This document shows positions 3,434-40,376 of a stretch of DNA of 64,000 nucleotides, in pieces. Numbering within the stretch: the stretch's first letter is position 1; each line of letters opens with the position of its first letter. Position numbers and translations under genes: made by a program. Origin of the DNA: an uncultured Candidatus Saccharibacteria bacterium (lineage in GTDB: Bacteria; Patescibacteriota; Minisyncoccia; Phycocordibacterales; UBA12088); the NCBI GenBank assembly GCA_964567265.1, contig CAZMLK010000001.1, positions 459,723-523,722 of the forward strand, given 5' to 3'. Below the pieces are notes generated by a model. The model was not told where the DNA came from. It made no database searches and saw nothing but the letters and a program-made list of their open reading frames with translations.

Positions 3434-3507
3434 TCGAAAGGTAAAACAGAGTGAAAAGAAAAAGGCGCTCCCCTTGGGGAGCGCCTTGACGTCAATGAAC
3501 CTGATGG

Positions 3508-4929
3508 TCAGTTGTTGCCGTTTTTCGCCGGCGGCAGACTTGCGATCCACGCAAGGAGACTCGCTTTCATGGACTGCAGTCGGGCGGGCATCGAGGAATT
3601 CAAGAGAATCTTCGTTCCCCGATCATTTTGGAGGTTATAGAGATTGTAGGTCGTACCGTCCTGCAAGCGCTCCAGGAAGTACGGCCAGTCGAGCATGGCG
3701 GCGATGACCTTGTTTCGCCCCCAGGCGAAATACTTGCGTTTCGGGACGGCAAGAGACGGATTCCTGAGGTAGGGCAAGAGGCTGATGCCATTCAGCTTGT
3801 ACGACGCGGGCGCGGCATAGGTACCGCCCGATGCCGCATCCATGATGGTCGGAAACCAGTCGTACATGAATGCCGGCTGGTTGAAGGTCGTGCCGGCCCT
3901 GATATCGCCAGCCGGCCAATAGACGCTCGCGGGAACGAGTATGCCGCCCGGATCCGCATGACCCTTGTTCCCCATCTCGGGAAGATTGGAGCACTTTAGG
4001 TTCTCAGTCACGTGGAGAACCGGGTCGGACAGCCCGTTGCCGCAATCGCCACCGTTATCGCTCTCCGTAATGAAGAGAGTATTGTCGTGATCGATCTCGA
4101 GCGCCGCCGCGAGCACCATCCCGACGATGTGATCGAGGTCATAGTACATCGCGAGGATCATGCGGAGCTGCGGATCCGCGACGCTCGCGAATGCCGCCAG
4201 CGCTTCCGGCGTTGCTTGCGCGGGCGTATGGACCGAATTGACCGGCAGATAGAGAAACGTCTTCTCGTCCCGATGCGCACGCATCCACCGGATCGCGGTT
4301 TCGGCGAAGTAATAGCCGATATGCTTGTCGTCAGCGATGCTAACGACTTCTTCGCGGAGTCCGACGCCTCCATGGTAGATCTGGTTGTTGGTATCGTCGA
4401 CGTCGCAACCGATCTTGGTATAGCAGTGATGCCCGTCATAGAAGACCCAGGACTCGCGGAATCCGCGCTGCCAGGGCTGGCGCCCATTCTCCAGCGACTT
4501 GTCTGGAGCACCTCCCATGTGCCACTTGCCGACAACTGCCGTCAAGTATCCGAGATTCGTCAGCTGTTCAGCCAACGTGGGATATTGCGTCGGCACGCCG
4601 GTCACCGGCTTCGTGTCCGCGATATTGCCCCGAAGGCCAATGAGCGGCGAACTGCGGCCGGTTGCGAGCTCAGCCCGTGACGGCTGACAAAGATGCGGCG
4701 CGAAGGGAACGGTGAACCGTATCCCCTCAGCCGCGATCCAATCGAGATTCGGCGTCTTACTGCCGAACTTCTTCAGATTCGTACCGTTCGAGTAGCCTTC
4801 GTCATCTCGAAGGAGAAAGACGATGTGCTTCGGCGCAGGGGCCGCAGCCGCCCCTGCTGACTGCGCCACCACTGCTCCGAAGAACAGCAGTGAGGCTGTC
4901 AGCAGTGCCAATGATTTTCCGAGTCGCAT
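3508..4929 (-). CDS. Sulfatase (arylsulfatase family), secreted
   Basis: Signal peptide. 'PHLCQPSRAELATGR' carries the C-x-P-x-R formylglycine motif, and 'GKWHMG' is sulfatase signature II. Confidence 0.8.
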   Translation of the reverse strand: MRLGKSLALLTASLLFFGAVVAQSAGAAAAPAPKHIVFLLRDDEGYSNGTNLKKFGSKTPNLDWIAAEGIRFTVPFAPHLCQPSRAELATGRSSPLIGLRGNIADTKPVTGVPTQYPTLAEQLTNLGYLTAVVGKWHMGGAPDKSLENGRQPWQRGFRESWVFYDGHHCYTKIGCDVDDTNNQIYHGGVGLREEVVSIADDKHIGYYFAETAIRWMRAHRDEKTFLYLPVNSVHTPAQATPEALAAFASVADPQLRMILAMYYDLDHIVGMVLAAALEIDHDNTLFITESDNGGDCGNGLSDPVLHVTENLKCSNLPEMGNKGHADPGGILVPASVYWPAGDIRAGTTFNQPAFMYDWFPTIMDAASGGTYAAPASYKLNGISLLPYLRNPSLAVPKRKYFAWGRNKVIAAMLDWPYFLERLQDGTTYNLYNLQNDRGTKILLNSSMPARLQSMKASLLAWIASLPPAKNGNN

Positions 4930-5075
4930 AGCGATATTCCCTTACTATGCATGTCAACGTTCGAACGCTCCGCGTCAAGGATTTCTTGCCGCGTTCCGCA
5001 AAGGACTATGCCACAGAAATGCTTTTTTGTCATTTTCTTAGATCGACTCGCGTGTTCCCTGCTATCATAGTGAGC

Positions 5076-5708
5076 ATGCATATCCGTATCGGCGTTGCTG
5101 TCGGGGTCATCGCGCTCCTCGCGTTCGGCCTCTTGGTCGTTGCTGCCCGGGAGCCGAACGGAACGACGCTCGTTCCCCCGGCAGAAGGTGGAGGCGTGCC
5201 AGCTGAGCCGGCAGCGAAAAAGGCCGACTCGCCGAAAGTCGCCACCTCGACGACGAGCACGCCATGGAAGGAATTCAAGAAACCGAGCGAAGCCGATCTC
5301 CGAGCGGAGCTTTCGGCAATCTCGTTCGAAGTCACGCAGAAGGAAGGCACGGAGACGCCATTTAGTAATGCATACTGGCACAACGAAGAGGCTGGCATCT
5401 ACGTCGATGTGGTTTCCGGCGAGCCGCTGTTCTCATCGCTTGATAAATATGATTCCGGCACGGGTTGGCCATCATTCACGAAGCCGCTCGTTGCGGAAAA
5501 TATAATATTCAAGGAAGACTACCTCCTTGGGATGAGGCGTACGGAAGTGCGCTCCCAGCATGCAGACTCGCATCTGGGACATGTCTTCGACGACGGCCCC
5601 GCGCCGCTCGGCAAGCGCTACTGCATGAATTCCGCAGCGCTCCGTTTCATTCCAAAGGCAGACCTGGAAGCGGAAGGTTACGCCGAGTTCGCGCCGCTCT
5701 TCAACTAA
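5076..5708 (+). CDS. msrB: Peptide methionine sulfoxide reductase MsrB, membrane-anchored
   Basis: 'GTGWPSF', '[21 protein letters not shown]' and 'RYCMNSAAL' are SelR/MsrB motifs. N-terminal TM helix; ATG at 5076. Confidence 0.85.
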
Positions 5709-25510: not shown

Positions 25511-25909
25511 TTAAACAAAGTTAATTAGGAAATTGTACATACCCATACCGCACACTCCTTGTAGTGGTTGACCGATTTTAGGAGTGCCGACATCAATAGT
25601 GTCTTCTCCGGTTTGGGGCAATATTTTCTGATAGCCAAGCGATCTAATTACTAAGGACGCCGAGCAGTCATAAGTACCGTTTGTTTTCACGACGAGCTTC
25701 GTCGGAATGCCACCCTTTGCTGTGGAGCTTTTCGGAGAATAGCCAGCTTTTGCATCGATAGTGATGTATTGCACGCCGTCTCGTATCTCGACATTCTGAG
25801 CTGCTCCCGTCGAAGCTGTCGGAGCGTTGCCCTTCGACCCACCGAGAAAGATAATGCCGAGGCCGACAACGAGGGCGAGCGTGAGGATGATCGAAGCAGT
25901 TTTGTTCAT
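25511..25909 (-). CDS. Secreted small cupredoxin-like / metal-binding protein (tentative)
   Basis: Signal/TM, then 'VVKTNGTYDCSASLVIRSLGYQKIL' and 'GVCGMGMYNF', with Cys/Met/His ligand candidates. It lies in the metal operon. The family call is weak. Confidence 0.4.
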   Translation of the reverse strand: MNKTASIILTLALVVGLGIIFLGGSKGNAPTASTGAAQNVEIRDGVQYITIDAKAGYSPKSSTAKGGIPTKLVVKTNGTYDCSASLVIRSLGYQKILPQTGEDTIDVGTPKIGQPLQGVCGMGMYNFLINFV

Positions 25910-25927
25910 AAGATAATTATATCAAAA

Positions 25928-26941
25928 TTAAATATTAAATAAGGGACGGATGATCCCCAATCCTGCGAGACCAGCAAGGAGTGCAAAGATGCCGAGGCCG
26001 ATCACCACGATCCCTGCTGACTTGAAGAAAAGCGGAGCATGTTTTGAATGTGCAAACGACACCGAACCGAAGGAAAGGAGCGCGAGCATCGGCAGGGTTC
26101 CAAGCGCGAACGAGAGCATGATCAGAAGTCCCGAGATGAATGATCCGCTTGAAAGCGCGGCGACCTGCATCGCTTGCGTGAATCCACAGGGCAGGAAGAA
26201 TGTACCGATACCGATAAGTATTGGAGCGAAAGTCGAGTGCTCAATTTTTCTGAAATAAGCAAAGATGCCGGTTGGCAAAGCCACTTTGCTTTTCTTAATG
26301 ACACCTATGAGATTGAGTCCAAGGAGTATCATCACACTTGATGCGATGAGACCGAGAATCGCCGAAAAGGTAAAGCTGATACCGATTGCCTTGCCGACCA
26401 GCCCCAACACTCCTCCAAGGACTGCAAATCCGAAGAGTCTACCGCCATGAAAAAGCACAAACTGTTTTTTGCTCGTTTTAGTGCTTTCATCTTGTGCGAC
26501 TTTCGCAGAAAGGGAGAGAATTAAGCCACCTACAATCGCCAGACAGCTTGAGACAGACGCAATGAGACCGATGATAAAGCTCGTTGTCGGTGTTGTCGTT
26601 CCACCAATTCCGAGGTTTAAAATGCCTGATTTTTGTAATATGAAAAACAGGATTAAGAACGCGAGACCAATGGGTATCGCTTTCCAAATAATATCGTCAG
26701 ACTTCTTTTCTTGAATAATCTTCTCGACTGAAAGGGTGTAGCCGTTTGGTTTTATTTTGGCTGTGAGAAGTTGCGCAATCTCCTCGAGGTTTTGATTACT
26801 ATCGGTCTCAATGGTGACCGTTTCTTTTTTCAAGTCAACCTGCGATTTTTGAATGAATGGCTGTTCGTTCAAAACATCTTCAATAAGGATTTTGCATGAT
26901 GCACAGTGAGTGCCAGAAACATGGAATGTAAGTGTTTTCAT
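25928..26941 (-). CDS. Heavy-metal-associated (HMA) domain fused to a CcdA/DsbD-like thiol-disulfide transporter membrane domain
   Basis: N-terminal 'GTHCASCK' (MxCxxC-type HMA motif). The TM domain has 'VSSCLAIVGG' and 'FFLPCGFTQAM', the two CcdA cysteines. Confidence 0.7.
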   Translation of the reverse strand: MKTLTFHVSGTHCASCKILIEDVLNEQPFIQKSQVDLKKETVTIETDSNQNLEEIAQLLTAKIKPNGYTLSVEKIIQEKKSDDIIWKAIPIGLAFLILFFILQKSGILNLGIGGTTTPTTSFIIGLIASVSSCLAIVGGLILSLSAKVAQDESTKTSKKQFVLFHGGRLFGFAVLGGVLGLVGKAIGISFTFSAILGLIASSVMILLGLNLIGVIKKSKVALPTGIFAYFRKIEHSTFAPILIGIGTFFLPCGFTQAMQVAALSSGSFISGLLIMLSFALGTLPMLALLSFGSVSFAHSKHAPLFFKSAGIVVIGLGIFALLAGLAGLGIIRPLFNI

Positions 26942-26950
26942 AAGTTTGTT

Positions 26951-27853
26951 TTATATAACTGCATCAGGCTCCAATTTGCAGAAACGGCCTGTCCTATCTT
27001 TTTCGACCTGCAGGGTTGCGTGACCTATATGGAATCGCTCTCGTAATTTCTCTACCGCATCCTGTAAGACAGAGTCATCGACAACCGCCTCTGCTCTTAT
27101 AAGATGTGCGGTTAAACCTGTTTCTTTGGTGCTTATGCTCCAAATATGCAAGTCGTGAACTGCAACAACACCAGCAAGACCCTTGAGATATTTTTCAACA
27201 TCATCCCTATCAACAGATTCGGGAACCGCATCAAGTGATAGATTAAGAGATTCGCGCATGAGAGACCACGTGGTGAAAATGATCACAGCGGCAATGACAA
27301 TACTGATTACGGGATCAATCCATGCGAATCCTGTTAGCGTAATGAGTAAACCTGCAATGACTACTCCAAAAGAAACACCTGCATCAGCAGCCATGTGAAC
27401 AAATGCACCTCGAATATTGATGTCATTCTTTCGGCCTCTAAGAAACAGCAATGCGGTTACTCCATTGATAACGATACCAACGACCGCTACCCACATGACA
27501 GTACTACCCATAACATTCGCAGGAGCATTAAATCTATGCAAAGCTTCTACAAAAATTCCTCCAGCCGCTACAAAAATAAGAATTGCATTGAAAAGCGACG
27601 TGAGAATAGAACCTCGCCCAAATCCATACGTATGTTTTTTACTTGGTGTCCGAGTAGCAAACCAAATTCCCGCCCATGAAATGAGAAGTCCGAAAACATC
27701 AGTTGCGTTATGGATCGCGTCTGAAGTAAGAGCAAGCGAATGAGAGGCATACCCAAACCACAATTCGGTAATAACAAACAATATATTCAGAGCAAGCCCG
27801 ATAATAAAGGCCAGATTATAATTTTGAGTTTTATGAGAATGATCGTGCGCCAT
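26951..27853 (-). CDS. Cation diffusion facilitator (CzcD/ZitB-like) metal efflux transporter
   Basis: 'HSLALTSDAIHNATD' and 'HMAADAGVSFGV' are CDF signature helices, followed by a C-terminal cytoplasmic domain. Confidence 0.8.
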   Translation of the reverse strand: MAHDHSHKTQNYNLAFIIGLALNILFVITELWFGYASHSLALTSDAIHNATDVFGLLISWAGIWFATRTPSKKHTYGFGRGSILTSLFNAILIFVAAGGIFVEALHRFNAPANVMGSTVMWVAVVGIVINGVTALLFLRGRKNDINIRGAFVHMAADAGVSFGVVIAGLLITLTGFAWIDPVISIVIAAVIIFTTWSLMRESLNLSLDAVPESVDRDDVEKYLKGLAGVVAVHDLHIWSISTKETGLTAHLIRAEAVVDDSVLQDAVEKLRERFHIGHATLQVEKDRTGRFCKLEPDAVI

Positions 27854-27857
27854 AATA

Positions 27858-30167
27858 TTAGAGCTTTGTATTTTTAAGACGCAGCGAATTGGTTACGACC
27901 GTTACACTCTCGAATGCCATAATCGCTCCGGCAATAGCAGGACTTAGAGTCCAGCCAAAAAATGGAAAGAGAATACCGGCTGCGACAGGAATACCGACAG
28001 AGTTGTAGCCGAAAGACCAGATAAGATTTTGCCATATTGTTCGATTGGTCTTTTTTGCAAGATTCACGGCTTCGGCGACTTTGCCGATATCGCCTTTGAG
28101 AAGCACAATATCAGAGCTTTCAATTGCTATATCCGATCCGTCGCTCATTGAGATCGCAACATCTGCTTGTGTAAGAGCTGGCGAATCGTTCACTCCATCG
28201 CCAATCATTGCAACCTTGAAACCCTTCTTTTGAAGATCAGATACGATGTTTAACTTATCCTCTGGCTTCACATCGGCAAATACCTCGTCGATACCAAGCT
28301 CCCGCCCTACCGCATCAGCGGTTTTCCTGTGGTCGCCTGTAGCCATAATAACTTTGAGACCGAGAGATTTGAGTTTAGCGATTTCTGTTTTTGCTTCCGC
28401 CTTGATAGTGTCGTGAATTTTTACGAGCGAGAGCACTTCTTTGTCGTTTGCAAGATAGAGTTCGCGTCCGCTTTCAAATCGACCGTCGTGGAAATCTTTT
28501 CTAATCTGTTCCTCCGACTGCTTGATTACACCGCTCACATAAGCGATCGAGCCGAGGTAGTAGGACATATCTTGGTAGGAGGAAGTAAGGCCCTTTCCCG
28601 GTACTTCTTCAATATCAGAAATGTCAACACTTTTCGCTTTTGCGTCCTTGAGCCAATTTGCAATGCTTGCTGATATAGGATGCTTCGATGATTTCGTCAT
28701 CGAGTAGATGAGCGACTGCTTAAAGCTGGTATCCTCGATATCACAGACATGATTCTCGTCCTTACAAAATATTCCCTCGATGGACAGCTTGTTTTCTGTA
28801 AGCGTACCAGTCTTATCGAATACAATCGCACTTACCTTTGAAAGCTTCTCAAGACTCTCTGCGTTCTTGATGAGAATGCCACGACGCGCACCAGTACCGA
28901 CGCCGGTAATGATTGCAGTCGGAGTTGCGAGACCAAGCGAGCAGGGACAAGCAATCACCAAGACCGCCATAGTGGTAGAGATTGCTAGGGCGAACGCTTT
29001 TGTCATTCCAAATGTTCCCGGCGCAAATATCATCCATGAAGCAAATGTAATGACTGCAAGCACGAGCACAATGTATACGAAATAACCAGAAATCTTGTCG
29101 GCAATCTTTTCTATAGGTGCCTTTGAATTCTGGGCATTATCGACAATGCTAATGATGTGCGCGAGAGCGGTATTCTTAACATCTTTTTCAACCTGCACTT
29201 TCAATAGCCCCTGAAAATTCTGGGTCCCTGCAAATACCACGGCTCCTGATAACTTATCCACAGGCACTGACTCTCCGGTAAGATTAGACTCGTCAACGCT
29301 CGACGAGCCATAGATGACCTTACCGTCAACAGGGATCTGCTCGTTTGGCTTCACAATAACCACGTCGCCAACCTCAACTTTCTCAATAGGTATTTCGATC
29401 TCTTTTCCGTCTCGTTCGATCACAGCAAACTTACTGGTAAGTTGTGCGAGCTTTTGGAGAGCCTCGTTTGTCTTTTTCTTTGCTCGCGCTTCGAGGAACT
29501 GACCGAGGGCAATGAGACCTATCACTATAATAACGACATCATAAAAATTTGAACTAACATCCAGATATTTTGAAAGCGGTGCCTCGAAAGCTGTTACTGC
29601 AAGAGAGTATATAAATGCGACGATAGTCGAGATTCCAACAAGCACATCCATGTTGGCGATACCAGTACGCAAGAAAATCCAGGTAGCTTTGATATATCGC
29701 CGACCGATTCCAAAAAGCACAAAGCTCGCAAAGATCGGCATCAGATGATGGAAGAATTCGTAGATCGTTTCAGGCATTTTCGGGATGATGCCGTTATTGG
29801 ACAGAACATCCCAGAACATCATTACGAAAGAGAAAATAACCATTGGTATGACGAATTTCATTTCGAGGGCCATGTTCCTCACTCCGCTTCCCCTAGAGTG
29901 ATCCATGCGAGCATGATCCTCCGCAGACATATTCATTTCAGCAGCAGTTGTGGCTGTATCTTCAAACTCATAACCGAGGGGGGAAATCACGCTATTGAGA
30001 TTTTCTAACGGAAGCGGTGACGCAGAGAAAACCACCTTTGCTTTTTCATTACCCAAGCCAACCGATACCGACTCAACCCCCGGCACTTTGGCTATTTTGT
30101 TTTGAATAAGAGAGACACAGCTCGCACAGTGCATCCCTTTTACCTTGTATGTGTTTGCTGTAGTCAT
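27858..30167 (-). CDS. copA: Copper-translocating P1B-type ATPase
   Basis: N-terminal HMA 'GMHCASC'; 'CPC' in TM6 ('IACPCSLGLATP'); 'DKTGTLT'; 'GDGVNDSPAL'. Confidence 0.9.
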   Translation of the reverse strand: MTTANTYKVKGMHCASCVSLIQNKIAKVPGVESVSVGLGNEKAKVVFSASPLPLENLNSVISPLGYEFEDTATTAAEMNMSAEDHARMDHSRGSGVRNMALEMKFVIPMVIFSFVMMFWDVLSNNGIIPKMPETIYEFFHHLMPIFASFVLFGIGRRYIKATWIFLRTGIANMDVLVGISTIVAFIYSLAVTAFEAPLSKYLDVSSNFYDVVIIVIGLIALGQFLEARAKKKTNEALQKLAQLTSKFAVIERDGKEIEIPIEKVEVGDVVIVKPNEQIPVDGKVIYGSSSVDESNLTGESVPVDKLSGAVVFAGTQNFQGLLKVQVEKDVKNTALAHIISIVDNAQNSKAPIEKIADKISGYFVYIVLVLAVITFASWMIFAPGTFGMTKAFALAISTTMAVLVIACPCSLGLATPTAIITGVGTGARRGILIKNAESLEKLSKVSAIVFDKTGTLTENKLSIEGIFCKDENHVCDIEDTSFKQSLIYSMTKSSKHPISASIANWLKDAKAKSVDISDIEEVPGKGLTSSYQDMSYYLGSIAYVSGVIKQSEEQIRKDFHDGRFESGRELYLANDKEVLSLVKIHDTIKAEAKTEIAKLKSLGLKVIMATGDHRKTADAVGRELGIDEVFADVKPEDKLNIVSDLQKKGFKVAMIGDGVNDSPALTQADVAISMSDGSDIAIESSDIVLLKGDIGKVAEAVNLAKKTNRTIWQNLIWSFGYNSVGIPVAAGILFPFFGWTLSPAIAGAIMAFESVTVVTNSLRLKNTKL

Positions 30168-30172
30168 ATAGG

Positions 30173-30448
30173 TTATTTTCGCTTAAGTTTATAAACCTTA
30201 AGCACTTCATCTTTTGCCTTATTCGACTGACCCGTGGACATTTGATGATGAACGCAATGATCAAGGTGATTTTCTAATAAAATATCCTCCACATTTGAAA
30301 GTCCTTGTTTGACTGCCGATGTTTGAGTGATCACATTGATGCAGTACGTATCGCTCTCAACCATTTTTTGTAGTCCGCGCACCTGACCTTCAATCAGCTT
30401 GAGTCGGCGAATGACTTTCGCCTTACTTTTTTCGTCCATGTATTTCAT
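30173..30448 (-). CDS. csoR: CsoR/RcnR-family metal-sensing transcriptional repressor
   Basis: 'RRLKLIEGQVRGLQKMVESDTYCINVITQTSAVKQGL' and 'HLDHCV' give the Cys/His/Cys Cu(I) ligand pattern. Confidence 0.8.
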   Translation of the reverse strand: MKYMDEKSKAKVIRRLKLIEGQVRGLQKMVESDTYCINVITQTSAVKQGLSNVEDILLENHLDHCVHHQMSTGQSNKAKDEVLKVYKLKRK

Positions 30449-30457
30449 ATAACAATA

Positions 30458-30475
30458 ATACCCCCTAGGGGGTAT
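30458..30475. promoter_or_regulatory. Perfect 18-bp GC-rich palindrome ATACCCCCTAGGGGGTAT, 10 bp upstream of the csoR start; candidate CsoR operator
   Basis: It resembles known CsoR operators (TACCC..GGGTA-type dyads) and sits at the head of the csoR-copA operon. Confidence 0.5.
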
Positions 30476-30524
30476 ATGTCAAATGAAAATAGTAAAGTCT
30501 GAAGTGGAAGAGTATGATTAGCTC

Positions 30525-33326
30525 ATGGCTAAGTACAGTCGCGCTAAAAGAATCGAAAAACAGGAAGTGGGAATACTGGAGACTCTCCTGAACGCCCATC
30601 CTCTGCTCACGCAACTCACTAAAGGAGACGATGATTTCCCGCTTATCGATGGATACGTCCATTTACTCAAAGAGCAAGACGAGGTGGATGGGAATATGCT
30701 CAAAGTGCAGGTAAAACCCCTCAAGATCAACAAGGATGGCACACTCTCCGCGACATGTAGCACCGACCTTTTGAGTCACGCGCACGGCTCCTCTATACCC
30801 GTCCTTTTGGTCGCGGTGAATCCGGACGAGCAGATCGCGTACTGGATGTATCTCGCGCCTGAGGCCGTGAAGACCCAGTACGAAGCGCAGATCGCGGCCG
30901 GTAAGAAGACGATCACCTTTCGACTGAATAAAAGTAATGTCATCAAAAAAGGTACCGATAAATATATCGCGGAGTGGAAGCGCATTTGCGGTCATCATCG
31001 GAACACTTCGAACGATCGCCTTGCCGGTAGATACAAAAAACGCATCAAGAAAAATCTCATAACAGCGAATGAGGACACTTTACTCGAACGGATTCGGACT
31101 CTACACGACCTCGTATACTACCGAACGAATAAAGGCGAGTTCCCACTAGTGGAGATCGTGCTCGAGATGGCGCGTACGATCGGTGGCACTTCTGCGTCCG
31201 TGAAGATCGCGTATATCGAGTTGCTTGAGCAACTCATTCACGACAAGACGTCCGAAGCTCTGGAGGTAATCACAAAACTCGCGTCCGATGAGAGCGAGCA
31301 AGTTCGAAGGAAAGCAGCGGAAACATTGAAGAACGCCGCGAAATACAACTACCATTGGCTCAATGCTATCGGTTACGGTCCGTACCGCACCATGCTCAAC
31401 TTTCTCGAGAGCCATGATGTTCCGTCAGAGATCGCGCACGAGATGTTCCGTAACCTCCTTACCCCCGATTTCGACGGCACTTCGCAGACAGACATGTACA
31501 CGCTTACTTTTCACCGCGGTGCGCTGGACGCAACAAAGTTCCTCAAAGATCTTCGTCATGATGCAATAAATCTCCTAACTAAGCGATATGAGACGACAGA
31601 TACGATTCGCGAGAAAAGTAAAATCGTGGATACGCTTGGCTATGCAACCCACAAGACCGACTGGCCGACCGGTGATCCCGACTTCATCCAAAGGTCTGTA
31701 GATATGGTCGAGGCCGACACTCAGCTTGTTGTTGCAGCATATAAAAAGATCCTTTTCCCAAAAGGCAAAATGATCTCTGACTATCCGGTAATCTACGAGA
31801 TCGAGACACAGGTATCGATCTTGAACACGAGAGAGCGCAAGATCGCAGGCGTTGACGAGCTGCTTCAACAGATCCGCGAGGACAAGGGCGACTATCGATT
31901 GTTTAGCTTACTCGCCGGAGACGAGATGCGTTTGCGCCGCGACGTTGAGTGGCAAGAGGGGCGAAAGCAAAAAGAAGAGGAGATCAAGGAGATCCTCGAT
32001 TCGATCACGGAAGAAAATGCTGACGACTGGTACAAGCGCATAGACACCATCGCCAACTTTCGAGAGTGTATCGAAGACTGGCTCTATCAGACACTACGAG
32101 ACTTTCTCGCACAAATCGCAGAAAAGAAACCGGCAGTAGCTGCCATATTTGCAAAGCTCGCGCTCAAAAATAAGACAGGCCTGTATTTCTTTTTTCGTGG
32201 CATACTCTGGGGTCTTCGGAAAGGTTCACTCGAGCAGTGGGATGACCATGTTGAATACATTGCGAAGCATCGCCTCACAGATCAAATAGACGGGATCCTC
32301 ATGTCGTATTTCTCGATAGGAGGAACCGAACTATCCGCCGCCAAACTTCGCAAAGAAGATATAGCGCTTACCATTGAGATTGCGAAGAAAGAGGGGCGCT
32401 TTGCTTTCCTAAAGGGTTCAGAGATGAACCGCGCGCTCGAGTATCATTCGATCCGATCGCTCACATTTCTCTCAACGTTGGATAAAGCCGTTCGAAAAGC
32501 GCTGATCGAAAAAATAAAAGAGTACCCCGAACTAGACACCATGTACTCTAACGAACTCGGTTTTGCCCTGCATTGCAAATGGATCAAGTTGGATGAATGG
32601 GATCGACCAGATCTCGAAGCGCTTGCGGAGATGCTCGTAAACATAAAACGTCTCGATCACTACGAGATGCAAGTTCTTCACGAGCTGGGTATCTTTGACT
32701 TTGATCTAATGATGTCTGTGTTTGAGCGCCGTATAAAACATCCCTACGATAGTGGCTACGACGCAATCCCGTATCACATAGAGGCCGGTGTCGCGGCATT
32801 CATACGCGACGATCCTCGCACCAAAGACGTTGTCCGACGCTGGCTCGAAGAACGCAATCCCGATCAAGACGGGATGATCGGCTATCACTTAGGCGAGTTT
32901 GTGAATCGCATAGGAGGCACGGTGCTACGCGAAGCTCTCTCGGAGTTGATCGCTACTGGCAAGAAAGAAAACATCCTCAAGGTAATGGAAATGTTGCCTA
33001 TTTCTGATCCGGCAGACCCCTCCCTGTGTCTTGAGATCGTGGCCGCAACGGATGACAAGCAAATCTTGGCTAGAGTCGACGCACGGATGCGACAGACCAG
33101 TGGTGGCACCGGCTCCGTCGGCGAAAATATCTTCGCGCGGGAGATGCGCAAAAACCAAGCTCGTATCGAGGAAATAAAGTCGAGAGCGACGAATCCCAAG
33201 ATCGTAAAGTTCTGTGAGAAAGTACTTGCCAACCTTACACAGGACATCGCGAGATCCGATCGCGAGCATGAGCGAGAAATGCGGGAAGAACGAAAAGAAT
33301 ACGACGAGGAACACGACCTCGAATAA
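30525..33326 (+). CDS. Large (933 aa) protein: N-terminal DUF4365-like PD-(D/E)xK nuclease-fold domain, then a long HEAT/ARM-like alpha-helical region
   Basis: The N-terminus 'DDFPLIDGYVHLLKEQDEVDGNMLKVQVKP' fits the DUF4365 'D.ID.....(Q/E)VK' pattern. Later 'SEQVRRKAAETLKNAAKYN' and repeated helical hairpins follow. No P-loop. Confidence 0.65.
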   Translation: MAKYSRAKRIEKQEVGILETLLNAHPLLTQLTKGDDDFPLIDGYVHLLKEQDEVDGNMLKVQVKPLKINKDGTLSATCSTDLLSHAHGSSIPVLLVAVNPDEQIAYWMYLAPEAVKTQYEAQIAAGKKTITFRLNKSNVIKKGTDKYIAEWKRICGHHRNTSNDRLAGRYKKRIKKNLITANEDTLLERIRTLHDLVYYRTNKGEFPLVEIVLEMARTIGGTSASVKIAYIELLEQLIHDKTSEALEVITKLASDESEQVRRKAAETLKNAAKYNYHWLNAIGYGPYRTMLNFLESHDVPSEIAHEMFRNLLTPDFDGTSQTDMYTLTFHRGALDATKFLKDLRHDAINLLTKRYETTDTIREKSKIVDTLGYATHKTDWPTGDPDFIQRSVDMVEADTQLVVAAYKKILFPKGKMISDYPVIYEIETQVSILNTRERKIAGVDELLQQIREDKGDYRLFSLLAGDEMRLRRDVEWQEGRKQKEEEIKEILDSITEENADDWYKRIDTIANFRECIEDWLYQTLRDFLAQIAEKKPAVAAIFAKLALKNKTGLYFFFRGILWGLRKGSLEQWDDHVEYIAKHRLTDQIDGILMSYFSIGGTELSAAKLRKEDIALTIEIAKKEGRFAFLKGSEMNRALEYHSIRSLTFLSTLDKAVRKALIEKIKEYPELDTMYSNELGFALHCKWIKLDEWDRPDLEALAEMLVNIKRLDHYEMQVLHELGIFDFDLMMSVFERRIKHPYDSGYDAIPYHIEAGVAAFIRDDPRTKDVVRRWLEERNPDQDGMIGYHLGEFVNRIGGTVLREALSELIATGKKENILKVMEMLPISDPADPSLCLEIVAATDDKQILARVDARMRQTSGGTGSVGENIFAREMRKNQARIEEIKSRATNPKIVKFCEKVLANLTQDIARSDREHEREMREERKEYDEEHDLE

Positions 33327-33342
33327 AATAAGTTTCTAGGTA

Positions 33343-34080
33343 GTGCCGTTAAAAATGAAAATGCAAATTAAGCCAATTTACGATGCAAAGTACTATAGAG
33401 TACAGGAGATCTCCGCCCACCCTGGCTTTTTGAATGACGTAAAAAATTTACTTAATTCATTCTCCACTTTTGGATGCCCAGTGCCCAAAAAAGGTTTTAG
33501 AAAATACTCGGAGTTTGATGCCTGGCAAAAGAAGTTATGGAAGAAGTACGATTATTATGTACGTAAAACCGGAGTTCAGGAAGACTTCCCAATAGTCGTA
33601 TATGGCCAAACAATAGATAAAATTCTGATGAGACACGGCCTTGATCCAAAAAATAAAGATGATAAATATTGGATTGAGCAATTCGTTTTCTTTAAGAAAA
33701 AAGAATTCGAAAAACCACTTGCTTTCATCAGGTACATACCGCCAATCGCAAATAAAGATCCTGAACTTTGGATAAGGTATTTTGGACACACCAAACCATC
33801 AGACATCAAGGTAGAAAAAATATTGGAATATCAAAAATTACTCCCGGACTATAGAGGCAAAAATAAACCCAAGGATAAAAAGATACTTAAAAGAAATAAG
33901 ATTGTCGTCGAGTTATATCTTAAAGAGAGAGAAAAAAGTCGTGGAGATATTTATGCACGTGAACGTAGCATCAAGGGGCAATCAATATCCCAATTTGTCG
34001 CTAATAAACTACATAAAAAGTACCCTGAATTAAACAAAGTTTTGGTAGAGCAGATTGTAAAAATGCAGCCTGAAAAATAA
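33343..34080 (+). CDS. Lys-rich hypothetical protein (245 aa), 17 bp downstream of the DUF4365/HEAT gene
   Basis: Very AT-rich ORF with no recognisable motif. A terminator hairpin follows. Confidence 0.5.
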   Translation: MPLKMKMQIKPIYDAKYYRVQEISAHPGFLNDVKNLLNSFSTFGCPVPKKGFRKYSEFDAWQKKLWKKYDYYVRKTGVQEDFPIVVYGQTIDKILMRHGLDPKNKDDKYWIEQFVFFKKKEFEKPLAFIRYIPPIANKDPELWIRYFGHTKPSDIKVEKILEYQKLLPDYRGKNKPKDKKILKRNKIVVELYLKEREKSRGDIYARERSIKGQSISQFVANKLHKKYPELNKVLVEQIVKMQPEK

Positions 34081-34119
34081 ACTCAAGGATAAAAATAAGC
34101 TTAACTGCATCCCATTCCT

Positions 34120-34151
34120 AAAACGACTAGCATAAACATGCTGGTCGTTTT
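34120..34151. terminator. Rho-independent terminator
   Basis: AAAACGACTAGCAT-AAAC-ATGCTGGTCGTTTT (one mismatch). Confidence 0.55.
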
Positions 34152-34155
34152 GATT

Positions 34156-34410
34156 ATGGAAATGAAAATTAAAAAAACAAATAAGACATATCAAACCGCA
34201 GACATGGCATGTGCTGCGGCTCTTTCGCTTTTCTTTCCAATAGAAGCAATAGACCGCACATCGGAGCGAAGGGTTTTCTTCATTTTTGAGAGCACAGAAA
34301 AATTGGATCAATTCGTGCAGATGTTTTGGCGTGGAGAGGTTCAGCTCGAACCAAGGGCATTTTTCGACAGCATAAAGGCGATCAAAACTCGGCTGTACGA
34401 CCAAATTTGA
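34156..34410 (+). CDS. DUF5659-like small protein (phage/CPR-associated family)
   Basis: 'YQTADMACAAALSLFFPIEAIDRTSERRVFFIFESTEKL...FFDSIKAIKTRLY' fits the DUF5659 pattern. Confidence 0.45.
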   Translation: MEMKIKKTNKTYQTADMACAAALSLFFPIEAIDRTSERRVFFIFESTEKLDQFVQMFWRGEVQLEPRAFFDSIKAIKTRLYDQI

Positions 34411-34412
34411 CC

Positions 34413-34628
34413 ATGTTAGCGAAGGAAACCATCGATGAGCTATCTGTGATCCTCCGAGAGGAATTCGGGGCCGATTTAACGGATGTAGAGGCGTATGAGG
34501 TAGGCACTTCTCTGGTGGGCCTTTTTGATCAATTAAGTGAGTTGGATCGGAAGGATAAACAACTAAAGGAGGTGAAGGACGCAAAAAAGAATGAACATGA
34601 AAAAACTGAGCTACATAAAACTATATAG
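34413..34628 (+). CDS. Small hypothetical protein (71 aa)
   Basis: ATG 3 bp after the previous stop; no motif. It overlaps the next ORF by about 38 nt. Confidence 0.3.
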   Translation: MLAKETIDELSVILREEFGADLTDVEAYEVGTSLVGLFDQLSELDRKDKQLKEVKDAKKNEHEKTELHKTI

Positions 34629-35064
34629 ACCGGAACTAGCTCGGCTCACAAAGAGCCTAAGCGAACGAGAAATTACACTTTTCTTAACCCTTGTATCGCA
34701 CGCCGGTTGGGATCCCAGACACAAAGACCATTATTCAAAAATAAATAAAACCCTTCGCGAAATTCAACAGGAATACCTTCCGGAATGGTCATTAGGAAAG
34801 GTGCATGACGTAATAACCGCCTTAAAAGATAAGGGGTTTATCGAAGTAGCTAGTAAAAGAACTTTTCTAATTAATTATCTGTGGCTCTACACTGCAACTC
34901 AAAAAACAATACAGGCAATTCTTTCTAATCCTGAACATTCTGCTCACTTACCTAAACAAATATTTCAGAATTCCGAACAGTCTGTTCGAACCGGTGAACA
35001 GCTAAACTTTCGAAATAAACTCAAAGATCTTGCGGAAAGCAAGCGTTTGCCTCGCGGCCCGTAA
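34591..35064 (+). CDS. Hypothetical protein
   Basis: AT-rich ORF; no motif. Confidence 0.4.
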   Translation: MNMKKLSYIKLYRPELARLTKSLSEREITLFLTLVSHAGWDPRHKDHYSKINKTLREIQQEYLPEWSLGKVHDVITALKDKGFIEVASKRTFLINYLWLYTATQKTIQAILSNPEHSAHLPKQIFQNSEQSVRTGEQLNFRNKLKDLAESKRLPRGP

Positions 35065-35276
35065 TTTCTTGTTCATTTTCTCGAACAAATTGCTCACGTA
35101 AAGAAATTAAAAAAACTAAATAAAAATAAACATGAAAATAAACCAACGACGCGCAAAAAAGATTGTTAAAGCTTTCACGGCATTTCTCGATTCTCAATAC
35201 AGAGAAACCTTGAGTCAAAGCATTAAAAGAGGGATCGCACGAAAGCGATCAGCGACGCTTAGACACAATAAATAAT

Positions 35277-35762
35277 ATGAAAATAGATAAAAATCCCCTC
35301 TACACAATCACTAAAAAGGAAATCCAAGAAATAGCCTCGGAAAGGATCGAACGATACCTAACTGAAGACGAGATTGAAGAGGTTATATACAAAATCAACG
35401 TGGAAGTAGTGAGGGTAATGCCGGAGGCTATCGAGGAAATAAACGAGTTTAGTGAATTGTGCTCTAGAGATATTGGGAAGATTAAAGCAACTCCAAGATA
35501 CGAGATTTACTGGAAAAACGACAACGCCTTCCAAAACACCCTCGTATTTACGTATACGTTTACAGACGAGGAAGATGCTAGAGCATATGTAGATCACGAG
35601 TACTGGGACGCAGGCGCTGAATACAAAATAGAAAAGGTCGATAACGAAAATCGAGAACTGATCGTTCATCACAAAAACCCACTAAACGGAGGGGATGGTT
35701 TCCATATGGACGTCCATAATGAGCCAAAAGACACCCAAAACGCCAAGGCTCTGAATTTCTAA
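35277..35762 (+). CDS. Hypothetical protein
   Basis: AT-rich ORF, acidic; no motif. Confidence 0.4.
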   Translation: MKIDKNPLYTITKKEIQEIASERIERYLTEDEIEEVIYKINVEVVRVMPEAIEEINEFSELCSRDIGKIKATPRYEIYWKNDNAFQNTLVFTYTFTDEEDARAYVDHEYWDAGAEYKIEKVDNENRELIVHHKNPLNGGDGFHMDVHNEPKDTQNAKALNF

Positions 35763-35763
35763 T

Positions 35764-36087
35764 ATGAAGTACTCGCGATATCAACGCTCTCTCCATATCG
35801 AAAAAGTTGCAACGATTCTACGAAGCGATCTGACGTTAAGTGCTAGAGCTGTGTTCAGGATTCTGAACGAGCAAGGACAGCATTTGAGTCGATCGTATGT
35901 GAATCAAGTAGTTGCTTACGCTCTTTCAAGAATCGGGGATGAGGAACGTAGAAAACGAATTGGTGCACAAGAACACGCCGAGTGGATCCAAAAAGTAATG
36001 GTCGTAAGTGAAGAGTTAGAGATCTTAAAGAAGAAACTTGACTCCCTGATTTGGTCTTATCCAGAGGATTTTGAGCCTAGGTATTGA
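35764..36087 (+). CDS. Hypothetical protein (possible small DNA-binding protein)
   Basis: It starts 2 bp after the previous gene; no firm motif. Confidence 0.35.
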   Translation: MKYSRYQRSLHIEKVATILRSDLTLSARAVFRILNEQGQHLSRSYVNQVVAYALSRIGDEERRKRIGAQEHAEWIQKVMVVSEELEILKKKLDSLIWSYPEDFEPRY

Positions 36088-36283
36088 ATTCCAATTATTT
36101 ATGAAAAGCGCTATACTTAATTTGCGACCTACGGTTTTGAATATCTGCACAGGGTATTTGCCTTTTTGTGGCTCCAATTGCGGGCTGAAAGGGGCAGCTA
36201 TCCTCCACAATTGGTTGCCTTGTGCAATTCAAGACTGTGGGTCGCAGGCTCTGGCTGTCCCTTTTTGTATTTCAGCCTGCGAC

Positions 36284-36829
36284 ATGGATAAGTTTAAAAA
36301 AGAACTAAAAAATGCATTTAAACTGCTCTCGATCTTTGTTATCGGGATACCAGTCTTTCTCGCTGCTCTTTATGGTTTCGCATCGCTCATGGCCAATAAT
36401 TCCAATGCTCCGGATGTAAATAAGGGGGTCATATCATTCATCTGTTCAAAACAAGAAGGCGCGAAAAACATTTCTTACTACCTCGTTAATACAGTCAGCG
36501 CAGTAGATCAAACAATTCAATTTTCAAATCCGTTACGCGACGTCGCAGTTCAGATGTCACGCATTTCTAATAAGGGAGGTTGGGATACTCAATCGCTCTG
36601 CACTCCAAATGTTATGGATTTACCGGAGGCGGAGTGGCAGACGCTTTCGATAGGATCAGACTGTGGCGTAGGGGCATCTATTTCCGCATGTGATGCAGAG
36701 ACAATTACAACCTCTAACGGCGTACAGATAATACGGTTGTTTCCTCTTGTGAACGGACTATATTCTGGAACCGCTGGATCTATAAAGAAAGGGGCGCTGA
36801 TCAAAATCACGGGTGTCTCCAAGAACTAA
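36284..36829 (+). CDS. Membrane-anchored hypothetical protein
   Basis: Internal ATG (MDKFKK) followed by a TM helix. Its stop sits 2 bp before the recombinase ATG. Confidence 0.4.
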   Translation: MDKFKKELKNAFKLLSIFVIGIPVFLAALYGFASLMANNSNAPDVNKGVISFICSKQEGAKNISYYLVNTVSAVDQTIQFSNPLRDVAVQMSRISNKGGWDTQSLCTPNVMDLPEAEWQTLSIGSDCGVGASISACDAETITTSNGVQIIRLFPLVNGLYSGTAGSIKKGALIKITGVSKN

Positions 36830-36830
36830 T

Positions 36831-38408
36831 ATGAAAGCAGTACTTTACGCACGAGTATCATCAAAGGATCAAGAGGAGCACGGCTACTCTCTTTCATCGC
36901 AACAAATGTTCCTTAAAGAATATGCGCAAAGAAAAGATCTTGAAGTGAATAGCAAGTGCATTTTTTCCGTATCAGAATCAGCAAGTTCGCGTAAGCAACG
37001 CGGAGTTTTTGCAGAAATGATGGCATACGCAATTAAGCATGACATAAAAGATCTTATCTGTGAGAAAGCCGATCGAATCACTCGTAATTTTAGAGACATG
37101 GTCGCTATCGATGACTGGCTAGAGGAGGATGATCAGAGACGCGTACACCTAGTCAAAGATAGTTTAGTAATGCATAGAAACTCGAGATCACAGGAAAAAT
37201 TAAACTGGGCAATTCGAGTAGTTTTTGCAAAAAATTACACAGACAATCTCTCGGAAGAAGTTAAAAAAGGACTCGCTGAAAAGTTGAGACAAGGATGGCT
37301 TCCAACAAAGCCTCCGGTTGGATACAAAACAATAGGAGAAAAAGGACGCAAGATTCACGTTATAGATGAGGACAAGGCTCCGCTAGTCAGAAAAATGTTT
37401 GAGCTGTATTCAACCGGCAATTACGGCACAGATACACTTGCAGAAATGATGTTCAAAGAAGGTCTCCGAAATGCGGGAGGCAAAAGAATATATAAGTCTC
37501 GCGTCGCAGTGCTTCTAACGGATCCGTTTTACATTGGCAAAATTAGGTACAACGACGCAATCCACAGAGGTGCACACGAGCGTCTAATCGGCGACGAATT
37601 ATTCGAGATAGTCCAAGGAAATCTAAAAGGAAATGGTGCTCCTCGATATCGACGCCACTCTCCGACATTCAAGTCGCTCATAAAGTGTGAGGAATGTGGC
37701 GGGTCGGTGACGTGGGAGATTCAGAAAGGACATTGGTATGGGCATTGCAATCGCTACAGAGAGTGCACTCAAAAGAAGTTTGTTAGACAGGAAAGGATTG
37801 AAGAGCAACTCCTGCCTTACTTGGATGAAATAACAATCAAAAATCCTCGTGTTCTCGAGTGGGTAAAGAAAGCCATGAAGGAAAGCCATGCTGATGAGAT
37901 AGCTTATAGCTCCTCCGCTCGGGATGAACTCAACAAACGATTTGAGTCTGTTCAGCGCCGCCTTGAGGCGCTCTACGACGATAAGCTGGATGGAAAGATT
38001 CCAGAAGACTTCTACCAAAGAAAATTTAAACAGTTCACTGAGGAGAAAGATCAGATCATTTCGGCGCTAAAAAGACACGACGGAGCAAATACGAAATACT
38101 ACGAACTCGGATCTAACGTGCTAGAACTTGCTCAAAGGGCAAAGGAGATCTATCTGAATGAAAATAGAACCGCCGACGAGAAAAGAATTCTCTTACGTTT
38201 AGTTTTTTCGAACCTCGTAATAAATGTAGATAAACTAACGGTTTCCTATAACAAAGCCTTCCAGATCCTTAGTACCTACTCGGGTATGTGGAATAAGAAA
38301 TTCGAACCGGAGGATAATGGCTCTGATAAAAGACAAAAAGGCACTTCCGTGCCTTCTCGTCCTATTTTGCTCCGGCGCCTGGATTCGAACCAGGGACCAA
38401 CGCGTTAA
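36831..38408 (+). CDS. Large serine recombinase (integrase)
   Basis: 'AVLYARVSSKDQ' resolvase-type catalytic Ser motif, a recombinase domain, a zinc ribbon 'CEECGG...C..C', and a coiled-coil C-terminus. The last codons ('LLRRLDSNQGPTR') translate the tRNA 3' end. Confidence 0.85.
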   Translation: MKAVLYARVSSKDQEEHGYSLSSQQMFLKEYAQRKDLEVNSKCIFSVSESASSRKQRGVFAEMMAYAIKHDIKDLICEKADRITRNFRDMVAIDDWLEEDDQRRVHLVKDSLVMHRNSRSQEKLNWAIRVVFAKNYTDNLSEEVKKGLAEKLRQGWLPTKPPVGYKTIGEKGRKIHVIDEDKAPLVRKMFELYSTGNYGTDTLAEMMFKEGLRNAGGKRIYKSRVAVLLTDPFYIGKIRYNDAIHRGAHERLIGDELFEIVQGNLKGNGAPRYRRHSPTFKSLIKCEECGGSVTWEIQKGHWYGHCNRYRECTQKKFVRQERIEEQLLPYLDEITIKNPRVLEWVKKAMKESHADEIAYSSSARDELNKRFESVQRRLEALYDDKLDGKIPEDFYQRKFKQFTEEKDQIISALKRHDGANTKYYELGSNVLELAQRAKEIYLNENRTADEKRILLRLVFSNLVINVDKLTVSYNKAFQILSTYSGMWNKKFEPEDNGSDKRQKGTSVPSRPILLRRLDSNQGPTR

Positions 38409-38442
38409 CAGCGCGCTGCTCTACCGCTGAGCTACACCGGAA
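38371..38442 (-). tRNA. tRNA-Asn (anticodon GTT)
   Basis: Hand-folded cloverleaf on the minus strand. Acceptor TCCGGTG/CGCCGGA; D-arm GCTC-AGCGGTA-GAGC; anticodon stem GCGCG/CGCGT with loop CTGTTAA; T-arm CCTGG-TTCGAAT-CCAGG; discriminator G; CCA not encoded. Confidence 0.8.
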
Positions 38443-38540: not shown

Positions 38541-38665
38541 CGCTTTTGCGAGTGTTTGTGTCCCGCGCAAGCGCTGGGAAGATTTCCCGGTCACTTAGTG
38601 ACTCGAGAAGAATGTACGTGTCTGCTTTTGCAGATCTTTGTGCCCGCGCAAGCGCTGGGAGTGCA
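38541..38665. repeat. Two imperfect ~49-bp direct repeats, each with a 5-bp hairpin plus a 'TTTGTG(T)CCCGCGCAAGCGCTGGGA' box, upstream of tRNA-Asn
   Basis: Copy 1 at 38541-38589 and copy 2 at 38617-38665. The hairpin CTCGC-TTTT-GCGAG (copy 1) versus TCTGC-TTTT-GCAGA (copy 2) shows three compensatory pair changes. Confidence 0.4.
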
Positions 38666-39197: not shown

Positions 39198-40376
39198 TCA
39201 GGAAGTGGCGTTGGCAGCTGACGGCCGGAAACGCCGGAAGCCAGCAATCATCGCATCGGTAGACCGGTAGGCAAGCATGCCGACCAGAAGTGCGACCAGA
39301 AACAGTACGATGCCGCCCGGATGCGCATTTGCGAAATCAATCGCGGATGCCATCCAGTTGTTCAGCTTGATGGCCGTGTACGCACCCCAATTGTCGAGGC
39401 TCGCAACGGTCGTGTTGAGGCTATTGATAGTGGCCTCCTGCGTTCCGAGCATATGGTTCAGCGAGCTGATAGTGCCATCGCGTTCGGCGGTCACTGCTTT
39501 TGCGGCAGCTAAGTCGAGCGATGCCTGCTTCATGGCTGCATTGAAGTTACGTTCCGCCTCCGCGAAACGTACCTGTGCTGCGTCGATGTCTGCTTGAGCC
39601 TGGTTCCGAGTGGCAGTAATGGTCGCGGTCGCGTTCTCCTGTACGCGTGCGACTTCGAGTCTGCTTACCTCTGCCCGCTTGGCGAGCGCGACCTGTACGG
39701 CTGCGTCGATTGCGGCCTGCGGGTCTACGAGCCGGGCATTCAGATCCCGGACTTGCCGTTCGAGTTCGCCGATCTGCACATCCTTGTTCAGGATCTGGAT
39801 CTCGAGCCCGGCTTCGCGTCCAAGGTTGGACGAGGCTGATGCGGACACGCGAGCGGGAGTGCTCGCGAGCTGTTCTTTCAGGTCTGTGATTTCTGCCCGG
39901 GCAGCGTCGAGTCTCTGCTTCAGCATGCTGTTTTCGACGACGAGCGCGGAGTTGTTGCCGGATGCGACATCCAGATTCACGCCGCCATTCGAGGCGACGA
40001 CGAAGTCCTGGAACTTCCCGCGGTCGAGTGGAAAGAGGTATACCTCGTTCGCCTTGTAACCGACGCGTGAGAACTCGGCATATTCGTCCCAGCCCATGTA
40101 CGGAAACTGTCCGTGCCAATGGGATCGCAAGCACGATTGTGCGGTCTCGCCTTGTGCCAGGAAATCCTGGCGCGCGGCAAGCTCACAGAAACGAGTAGGA
40201 TTGGTCTTCAGGTTTCCGAATTCCACCGGCACGAATGCGCGGAGGACATCTTCGGAAGGCCTCCCGGGACCGCTAAGGCCCTCGGGAGCCACTTGGAGCG
40301 CGTTCGCAGGATTCCCTGCGACGCCCGCAAGCAACAGGGCGACGAGCCCGGCGAGAAACGCCTGTGTACCCTTCAT
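39198..40376 (-). CDS. Secreted coiled-coil protein with a C-terminal TM anchor
   Basis: Signal peptide, a long Ala/Gln-rich heptad region, and a C-terminal TM helix. Confidence 0.5.
   Translation of the reverse strand: MKGTQAFLAGLVALLLAGVAGNPANALQVAPEGLSGPGRPSEDVLRAFVPVEFGNLKTNPTRFCELAARQDFLAQGETAQSCLRSHWHGQFPYMGWDEYAEFSRVGYKANEVYLFPLDRGKFQDFVVASNGGVNLDVASGNNSALVVENSMLKQRLDAARAEITDLKEQLASTPARVSASASSNLGREAGLEIQILNKDVQIGELERQVRDLNARLVDPQAAIDAAVQVALAKRAEVSRLEVARVQENATATITATRNQAQADIDAAQVRFAEAERNFNAAMKQASLDLAAAKAVTAERDGTISSLNHMLGTQEATINSLNTTVASLDNWGAYTAIKLNNWMASAIDFANAHPGGIVLFLVALLVGMLAYRSTDAMIAGFRRFRPSAANATS

Follow-up and report, generated by a model that had tools for sequence, protein, structure and literature searches.

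A nuclease–solenoid protein encoded by a single-gene cassette in a Saccharibacteria mobile element is a candidate immune sensor-effector

We analysed a stretch of 64,000 nucleotides, here called the window, from an uncultured Candidatus Saccharibacteria bacterium (assembly GCA_964567265.1, contig CAZMLK010000001.1, positions 459,723 to 523,722 of the forward strand); all coordinates are those of the window unless a comparison locus is named. An island at about 25.4–38.4 kb has a guanine-plus-cytosine content (GC) of 0.40–0.50 against a background of 0.55–0.57 and holds a mobile element of about 13 kb with a large serine recombinase, integrated at a tRNA-Asn gene. Two adjacent open reading frames (ORFs) of this element, coding for 933 and 245 amino acids, are the subject of the analysis, and both are real genes. 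The larger encodes a nuclease head joined to a long helical body and occupies a slot that related elements fill differently. The features on which the argument turns are as follows.

30507–33350, no strand: approximate limits of the swapped cassette, from junction alignments of occupied, differently occupied and empty slots.

30525–33326, plus strand: gene for the 933-residue DUF4365–solenoid protein (ORF and translation, ATG start), a single-gene cassette and candidate immune sensor-effector.

30633–30947, plus strand: DUF4365/DREN-type PD-(D/E)xK nuclease head, residues 37–141 (Pfam).

30648–30716, plus strand: predicted catalytic codons D42 (30648–30650) and Q62-V63-K64 (30708–30716), by alignment to SPARDA DREN.

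31182–33314, plus strand: alpha-solenoid (HEAT/ARM-like) body, residues ~220–930, predicted to be a sensor and oligomerisation module.

33355–34080, plus strand: Lys-rich 241-residue backbone gene, also listed as a 245-residue ORF from GTG 33343; not a partner of the large gene.

34119–34152, plus strand: 15-bp terminator-like hairpin following the small gene (folding free energy, dG, −24.6 kcal/mol; z −7.45).

The 933-residue protein has 14 homologue clusters, at 35–100% identity, among 5.8 billion proteins. Its residues 37–141 match Pfam DUF4365 (PF14280) with an E value of 3.5e-9 and 37.3 bits, the gathering score being 24.3. In a profile search of the Protein Data Bank (PDB), a marginal alignment to DREN-APAZ placed I41-D42-G43 and V61-Q62-V63-K64 on the IDG and VQIK motifs, so that D42, Q62 and K64 line up with these motifs of SPARDA DREN; D36 and D37 lie nearby. 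The catalytic residues of SPARDA DREN are D41, Q60 and K62, and the domain acts only as a tetramer, which resembles I-Ssp6803I (PMC12205087). All three aligned residues are invariant across the 14 close homologues, and wider DUF4365-headed members retain the aspartate (42 of 42), the glutamine (39 of 42) and the lysine (38 of 42). An active site of the DREN type is apparently conserved and intact. This site has a D...QxK motif of the Mrr type. With an isoelectric point (pI) of 8.8 the head is basic, and the body is acidic (pI 5.4, 18% Asp plus Glu). A search of NCBIfam with the whole protein gave no match, Pfam and NCBIfam detected no known DNA-recognition or DNA-binding domain, and PADLOC 2023 matched the nuclease head only, over positions 39–133 of the 429 in its Argonaute-associated restriction endonuclease model.

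An AlphaFold2 model built on the 14-sequence alignment has a mean predicted local distance difference test (pLDDT) score of 81.7 and a predicted template modelling (pTM) score of 0.63. In this model, residues 1–160 form an alpha/beta domain, whereas everything from about residue 160 onward is helical, ending in a helix of 39 residues. Pfam sees a single HEAT_2 repeat in the body, at residues 221–269, with 25.6 bits under a threshold of 27.7. Comparison of the body with solved structures, including DSR2, returned generic HEAT/ARM matches and no specific homologue. An earlier sequence-only reading of the window had proposed a DUF4365 nuclease head, which the Pfam score bears out, and the absence of a P-loop, which is likewise correct. 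It had picked out the right catalytic motif strings and numbered them wrongly, as Asp53/Asp56 and QVK 75–77; of its HEAT/ARM-like body, the long solenoid stands in the model and the Pfam HEAT match amounts to one sub-threshold repeat.

A profile of the body (residues 165–933) was scored against 1.84 billion cluster representatives and found 648 of them at E values up to 1e-3, 181 of these at 1e-30 or better. Nearly all family members align over profile positions ~56–765, which correspond to residues ~220–930 of the window protein. To catalogue the heads, the best 150 of the 648 were pooled with the 14 close homologues, and their N-terminal regions were clustered and assigned with Pfam.

DUF4365 head: 40 members, the 14 close homologues included; Pfam above threshold; 927–1086 residues.

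RelA_SpoT head: 38 members; E about 1e-13; mostly ~1000–1030 residues.

TIR_2 head: one member; E 2e-12; 1081 residues.

Nuclease-like segment (seen by eye) plus NB-ARC: two members (P0118 and P0143); E 2.5e-10; 1274–1279 residues.

No head, 30–108 residues before the body: about 54 members; no Pfam match; ~800 residues.

In the two NB-ARC members, this domain stands between the nuclease-like head and the homologous body, and the RelA_SpoT head matches the PADLOC candidate PDC-S33 (E 3e-13). Within the DUF4365 clade the body changes faster than the head, with 32% versus 52% identity for the most distant homologue. When ten family members were searched against PADLOC-DB v2.0.0 (2023), only heads were matched and no model matched a body. 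A word-indexed profile search with 71 diverse members recovered the close clade, one RelA_SpoT protein and hardly anything else. In the library of papers searched, we found none that links DUF4365 to HEAT repeats or CapRel to a HEAT repeat, or that describes the body family; Pfam, NCBIfam, PHROGs and PADLOC 2023 have no annotation for this family, its set of heads or the nuclease–solenoid fusion.

Three further observations concern the family. Across the 71 members, at about 20% identity, invariant or near-invariant body residues include R344, R736, G863, a YDAIPY motif (745–751, with Y745 and P749), W773 and a Gly-rich loop, TGGGTGxxGE (859–866). A headless member of 801 residues (locus L020, 1799–4204; also L021) has a 296-residue ORF upstream (L020, 912–1802) that overlaps it by 4 bp. 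Inspected by eye, the upstream ORF shows an Mrr-like motif, GADGGSD...IVQIKW, a reading that is unconfirmed and found no PDB match; the two genes may represent the same design divided into separate effector and sensor. The Taylorbacteria homologue (L017, 3247–6063; 37% identity) appears as two ORFs, 492 and 403 residues long, for which a pseudogene, a frameshift or an assembly error could account.

Contigs with homologues of the small gene come in three forms that share one backbone and differ only between the repressor gene and the 241-residue gene. The common backbone consists of a CsoR-type repressor, the 241-residue gene, DUF5659, ORFs of 157, 161, 107 and 252 residues and the recombinase (80–92% identity). 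The slot contents, together with that of one further locus, are as follows.

L005–L008: a 934-residue DUF4365 protein.

L009–L012: a 611-residue DUF4209/HEPN protein.

L013–L015: empty.

L023: a BseCI-like methyltransferase and a 307-residue ORF, then the large gene (74% identity).

The variation has precise junctions: it starts about 30 bp past a palindrome, ATACCCCCTAGGGGGTAT, and ends about 5–25 bp before the ATG of the 241-residue gene. The DUF4209 protein matches the PADLOC candidate PDC-S39 nearly end to end (E 1.8e-23); published work places DUF4209 in the HEPN RNase superfamily and reports it from operons related to restriction–modification (PMC3710099). The methyltransferase of L023 is of the BseCI-like N6-adenine type (E 1.8e-20 to PDB entry 7qw5). 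The large gene occurs without the small one in at least six other contexts, mostly in candidate-phyla-radiation genomes (L001–L004, L016–L018, L023 and L024). Its homologues that stand apart from all other genes of the backbone include those of Parcubacteria and Saccharibacteria metagenome-assembled genomes (86% identity) and of a Moraniibacteria chromosome (71%), and more distant ones come from loci of Taylorbacteria, Minisyncoccia and metagenomes, at 35–38% identity. These comparisons show the large gene to be a one-gene cassette in a variable hotspot. The 241-residue gene is the first backbone gene of the element and not a partner of the large gene, since it is present with an empty slot or with another protein and is absent from most loci of the large gene.

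The small gene most likely starts at ATG 33355, giving 241 residues as in all homologues, rather than at the GTG of the 245-residue ORF (33343–34080, plus strand); homologue lengths of 237–241 residues and the junction alignment favour this start. The protein has 11 homologue clusters at 40–79% identity, is 17% lysine with a pI of 9.8, and matches nothing in Pfam, NCBIfam, PADLOC or PHROG. Its AlphaFold2 model (pLDDT 72) has no fold match in the PDB, the best E value being 0.94. A metagenome scan with the small gene as query, made for a wider census of slot occupants, returned nothing. Its gene follows the large gene on the same strand after 16–28 bp and always comes first in the backbone gene block. 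The sequence-only reading was right that the small ORF is Lys-rich and of far lower GC (0.35 against 0.498 for the large gene), a contrast accounted for by insertion of the large gene into the backbone as a foreign cassette. The strong terminator that it placed after the pair corresponds to the strong, terminator-like hairpin; a consensus terminator scan did not flag that hairpin. Its central proposal of a two-gene module with a Lys-rich partner did not survive: each gene occurs without the other in several loci, and the co-occurrence that it had asked about exists in one element lineage only and is not obligate. For the large protein itself, the ground for refutation named in that reading does not hold.

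Outside this lineage, the large gene recurs in unrelated serine-recombinase elements at tRNA genes, and its GC of 0.45–0.51 is found in hosts of GC 0.36–0.57. Judging from such sequence comparisons, it has moved across phyla. We read the neighbourhoods of a handful of loci. The TIR-headed relative (L026) adjoins an OLD-family ATPase–TOPRIM protein, a metallophosphatase pair and a GmrSD_N–HNH gene, and a 38%-identical homologue (L018) is followed by a DUF4238 protein (E 1.5e-30), of a kind that is listed among defence systems. The 344-residue gene that comes right after the Moraniibacteria homologue (L003, 13059–14093) gives a weak match to the PADLOC model PD-T4-6 (E 2.6e-4, 18 bits).

Taken together, these observations lead us to read the 933-residue protein as a stand-alone, single-chain conflict protein, most likely directed against phages or plasmids and carried as swappable cargo in the hotspot of the ~13-kb element; as an assessment from sequence, we give this a probability of roughly 0.58. 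Established beneath it are the head family with its conserved catalytic residues, the solenoid fold, the exchange of heads, the cassette behaviour and the independence from the 241-residue gene. The suspicion of an unnamed conflict or defence protein, voiced in the sequence-only reading, is upheld in that PADLOC 2023 matches the head only, related bodies carry immune-type heads and the slot behaves like a defence hotspot. In the mechanism that we envisage, the solenoid body of about 700 residues would hold the N-terminal DUF4365/DREN nuclease inactive and serve as receptor for a ligand that derives from the invader and is probably a protein. Ligand binding would bring about oligomerisation and, by analogy with the tetramerisation of SPARDA heads, the assembly of active nuclease sites. 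The assembled D42/Q62/K64 sites might then degrade DNA indiscriminately, so that the infection is aborted or the invader destroyed.

Several points weigh against this reading. The defence role of the body, for which PADLOC 2023 has no model, is argued from architecture and neighbourhood, and the surroundings of several relatives are unremarkable; one in a betaproteobacterium, for instance, comes after groES/groEL. PDC-S39, the occupant of the slot in sister elements, is itself a candidate system only. The invariant body residues could mark a conserved small-molecule or enzymatic site and not a variable protein sensor. Finally, the recurrent linkage of the clade to serine-recombinase elements could mean service to the element, not to the host.

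This last point leads to the alternative that fares best, though we think it unlikely, namely that the large gene serves the element as an addiction, exclusion or anti-competitor weapon, stabilising it or blocking its rivals with the same nuclease-plus-solenoid parts. A large serine recombinase lies within a few kb of close homologues in at least five backbones (the window, L001, L003/L004, L023 and L025), and the large gene is the first gene of the element's rightward block. However, the elements with an empty slot are otherwise intact, so the large gene is dispensable for the element; moreover, the distant relatives L017, L018, L024 and P0177 have no recombinase nearby, and no antitoxin-like partner is conserved.

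We regard as improbable a second alternative, in which the protein is a restriction nuclease directed to DNA in a type IV-like (modification-dependent) or other manner, its solenoid binding DNA and targeting the Mrr-like head to foreign DNA. HEAT-like repeats do bind DNA in AlkD-type glycosylases, the D...QxK motif and the basic head would suit such an enzyme, and in L023 the large gene comes after a DNA methyltransferase. Against this, the body is acidic, unlike a DNA-binding surface, and no DNA-binding domain was detected by Pfam or NCBIfam. In addition, the TIR and RelA/SpoT heads found on homologous bodies do not act on DNA, and the body's role is therefore probably not DNA targeting.

A role outside conflict, as a scaffold or nuclease that helps to repair or recombine DNA or to replicate or transfer the element, appears very improbable. 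PD-(D/E)xK nucleases and HEAT scaffolds do occur in repair and replication complexes, and one neighbouring backbone gene has a weak DnaD-like match, but the distribution of the protein is patchy and rare (the 14 clusters noted above), sister elements dispense with the gene, homologous bodies carry toxin-type heads (TIR and RelA/SpoT) and some relatives have defence-gene neighbours. That the Lys-rich protein is a regulator, antitoxin or DNA-binding subunit of the 933-residue protein is scarcely credible: the two genes are adjacent on one strand, close together and followed by a hairpin, and they occur together in the window and in L005–L008, but the small gene also stands beside an empty slot or a DUF4209 gene, the large gene lacks it in L001–L004, L016–L018, L023 and L024, their GC (0.35 and 0.50) indicates different origins, and the order of the small gene relative to the other backbone genes is fixed.

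Beyond the reading of the window protein as a conflict protein lies a wider one, which we put forward tentatively and at somewhat less than even odds. The solenoid may be an undescribed pattern-recognition module that works independently of an NTPase, present in at least 648 clusters, many of them in candidate-phyla-radiation bacteria, and borne on DREN, toxSAS, TIR and STAND heads or encoded as a separate gene beside an effector. On this view, the large gene would be the family's nuclease-armed member, and the family a new one of single-chain bacterial immune receptors that spreads between phyla on serine-recombinase elements. If the predicted immune role of the window protein is correct, the protein would be a compact single-gene immune receptor whose sensor module is unannotated in Pfam and PADLOC, and the use of one such module with at least four effector types would amount to a natural experiment in swapping effectors. 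A defence family prominent in candidate-phyla-radiation bacteria would be gained as well; to our knowledge, such bacteria have few known defence systems. Knowing the solenoid's ligand would reveal which feature of an invader is sensed, and the series of elements offers ready isogenic comparisons between an empty slot, the large gene, the HEPN protein and a restriction–modification pair with the large gene.

The remainder of the element comprises the following features.

25511–30448, minus strand: metal-resistance cargo consisting of a cupredoxin, HMA–DsbD_2, CDF, a P-type ATPase and a CsoR-type repressor (Pfam); GC 0.447.

30173–30448, minus strand: the CsoR-type repressor gene (Pfam Trns_repr_metal).

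30458–30475, no strand: the perfect palindrome ATACCCCCTAGGGGGTAT, in the divergent promoter region directly left of the cassette.

34138–36829, plus strand: the other backbone genes, DUF5659 and ORFs of 157, 161, 107 and 252 residues (Pfam, PHROGs), in an order kept in L005–L015.

36813–38408, plus strand: large serine recombinase of 531 residues (Pfam Resolvase, Recombinase and Zn_ribbon_recom; PHROG integrase, E 4e-69).

38369–38441, minus strand: tRNA-Asn (GTT), marking where the element ends on the right; the recombinase gene extends into it with its 3' end (ARAGORN; Rfam, 69.5 bits).

A minus-strand promoter close to consensus (TTGACA and TATTAT) overlaps the palindrome, whose sequence does not vary among the related elements. 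The palindrome probably serves as operator for the neighbouring CsoR-type repressor; if so, transcription of the cassette gene might start from a divergent promoter that responds to metal. The metal module is a mosaic, because its CDF gene (26951–27853) has no counterpart in the related elements compared and its P-type ATPase is 77% identical to that of L013 and only 46% identical to those of L005 and L009. In L013 and L014, a second large serine recombinase (3299–5146; 615 residues, 26% identity) with small genes of its own lies directly left of the metal operon, which suggests two elements in tandem.

The sequence-only reading had set the genes between a metal-resistance operon and phage-like small genes on a tRNA-integrated element. 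The operon and the integration were found as described, whereas the downstream small genes are not demonstrably phage-like: one small backbone ORF has a weak DnaD-like PHROG match, and the viral contigs of IMG/VR hold no relatives of either the large or the small gene. An origin as a prophage or satellite was rejected, there being no capsid or terminase genes and no PHROG matches beyond the integrase and that weak hit. A search for direct repeats flanking the island found none. Such an absence is the expected trace of a serine recombinase. Just outside the tRNA-Asn end, an 18-bp perfect direct repeat, CCCGCGCAAGCGCTGGGA, stands at 38562–38579 and 38643–38660, its copies 81 bp apart. The recombinase gene of four elements runs at its 3' end into the 3' part of a tRNA gene on the minus strand, namely tRNA-Asn in the window (36813–38441) and tRNA-Glu(ttc) in L001 (13877–15629), L003 (15550–16981) and L004 (6954–8691), and this looks like an integration design shared by otherwise unrelated elements. 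Further right, a host ORF of 392 residues (39198–40376, minus strand) matches Pfam Csm1_N above threshold (E 1.7e-7); this is a eukaryotic monopolin domain, and the match is probably a coiled-coil artefact.

Among known systems, the head family is familiar, and so is the principle of joining a toxic head to a helical-repeat sensor. The closest relative of the head is SPARDA DREN-APAZ, which belongs to the same Pfam family, has a fold resembling I-Ssp6803I and carries D41/Q60/K62 as the equivalents of D42/Q62/K64; by analogy, activation of the 933-residue protein probably needs oligomerisation. Unlike SPARDA, however, the protein has no APAZ, and no Argonaute gene lies nearby, its neighbours being the CsoR-type repressor and backbone genes. 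In SPARDA a guide-loaded Argonaute does the sensing; here the corresponding part is the solenoid of about 700 residues.

No homology of the body to the sensor parts of DSR2, CapRel or STAND proteins was detected, and the likeness to these systems lies in their layout. DSR2 combines a SIR2 head and a middle domain with a C-terminal HEAT-like alpha-solenoid, to which the phage tail tube binds (PMC11263360, PMC11850899). Logic and size are the same, with one chain of about 1000 residues, an N-terminal toxic enzyme and a C-terminal helical-repeat sensor, but the 933-residue protein has no SIR2 match in Pfam, NCBIfam or PADLOC, and no homologous C-terminal solenoid was detected. The CapRel-type fused toxSAS and PDC-S33 are also single-chain combinations of toxin and sensor, and the RelA_SpoT head occurs on 38 of the best 150 body relatives, whereas the window protein has a nuclease head in its place. 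CapRel is only about 370 residues long, with a small C-terminal sensor and not a 700-residue solenoid. Avs and other NLR-like STAND proteins similarly join an effector head to a C-terminal alpha-helical-repeat sensor, and two relatives, P0118 and P0143, contain NB-ARC; the majority of STAND sensors consist of helical repeats (PMC13581612). The 933-residue protein differs in having no NTPase domain or P-loop (NB-ARC/NACHT) by Pfam and NCBIfam. Lastly, the DUF4209/HEPN protein of PDC-S39 is unrelated in sequence and has its predicted RNase domain at the C terminus, not an N-terminal nuclease, but it too is a single gene that unites a helical region with a predicted nuclease, and in the sister elements it occupies exactly the same slot.

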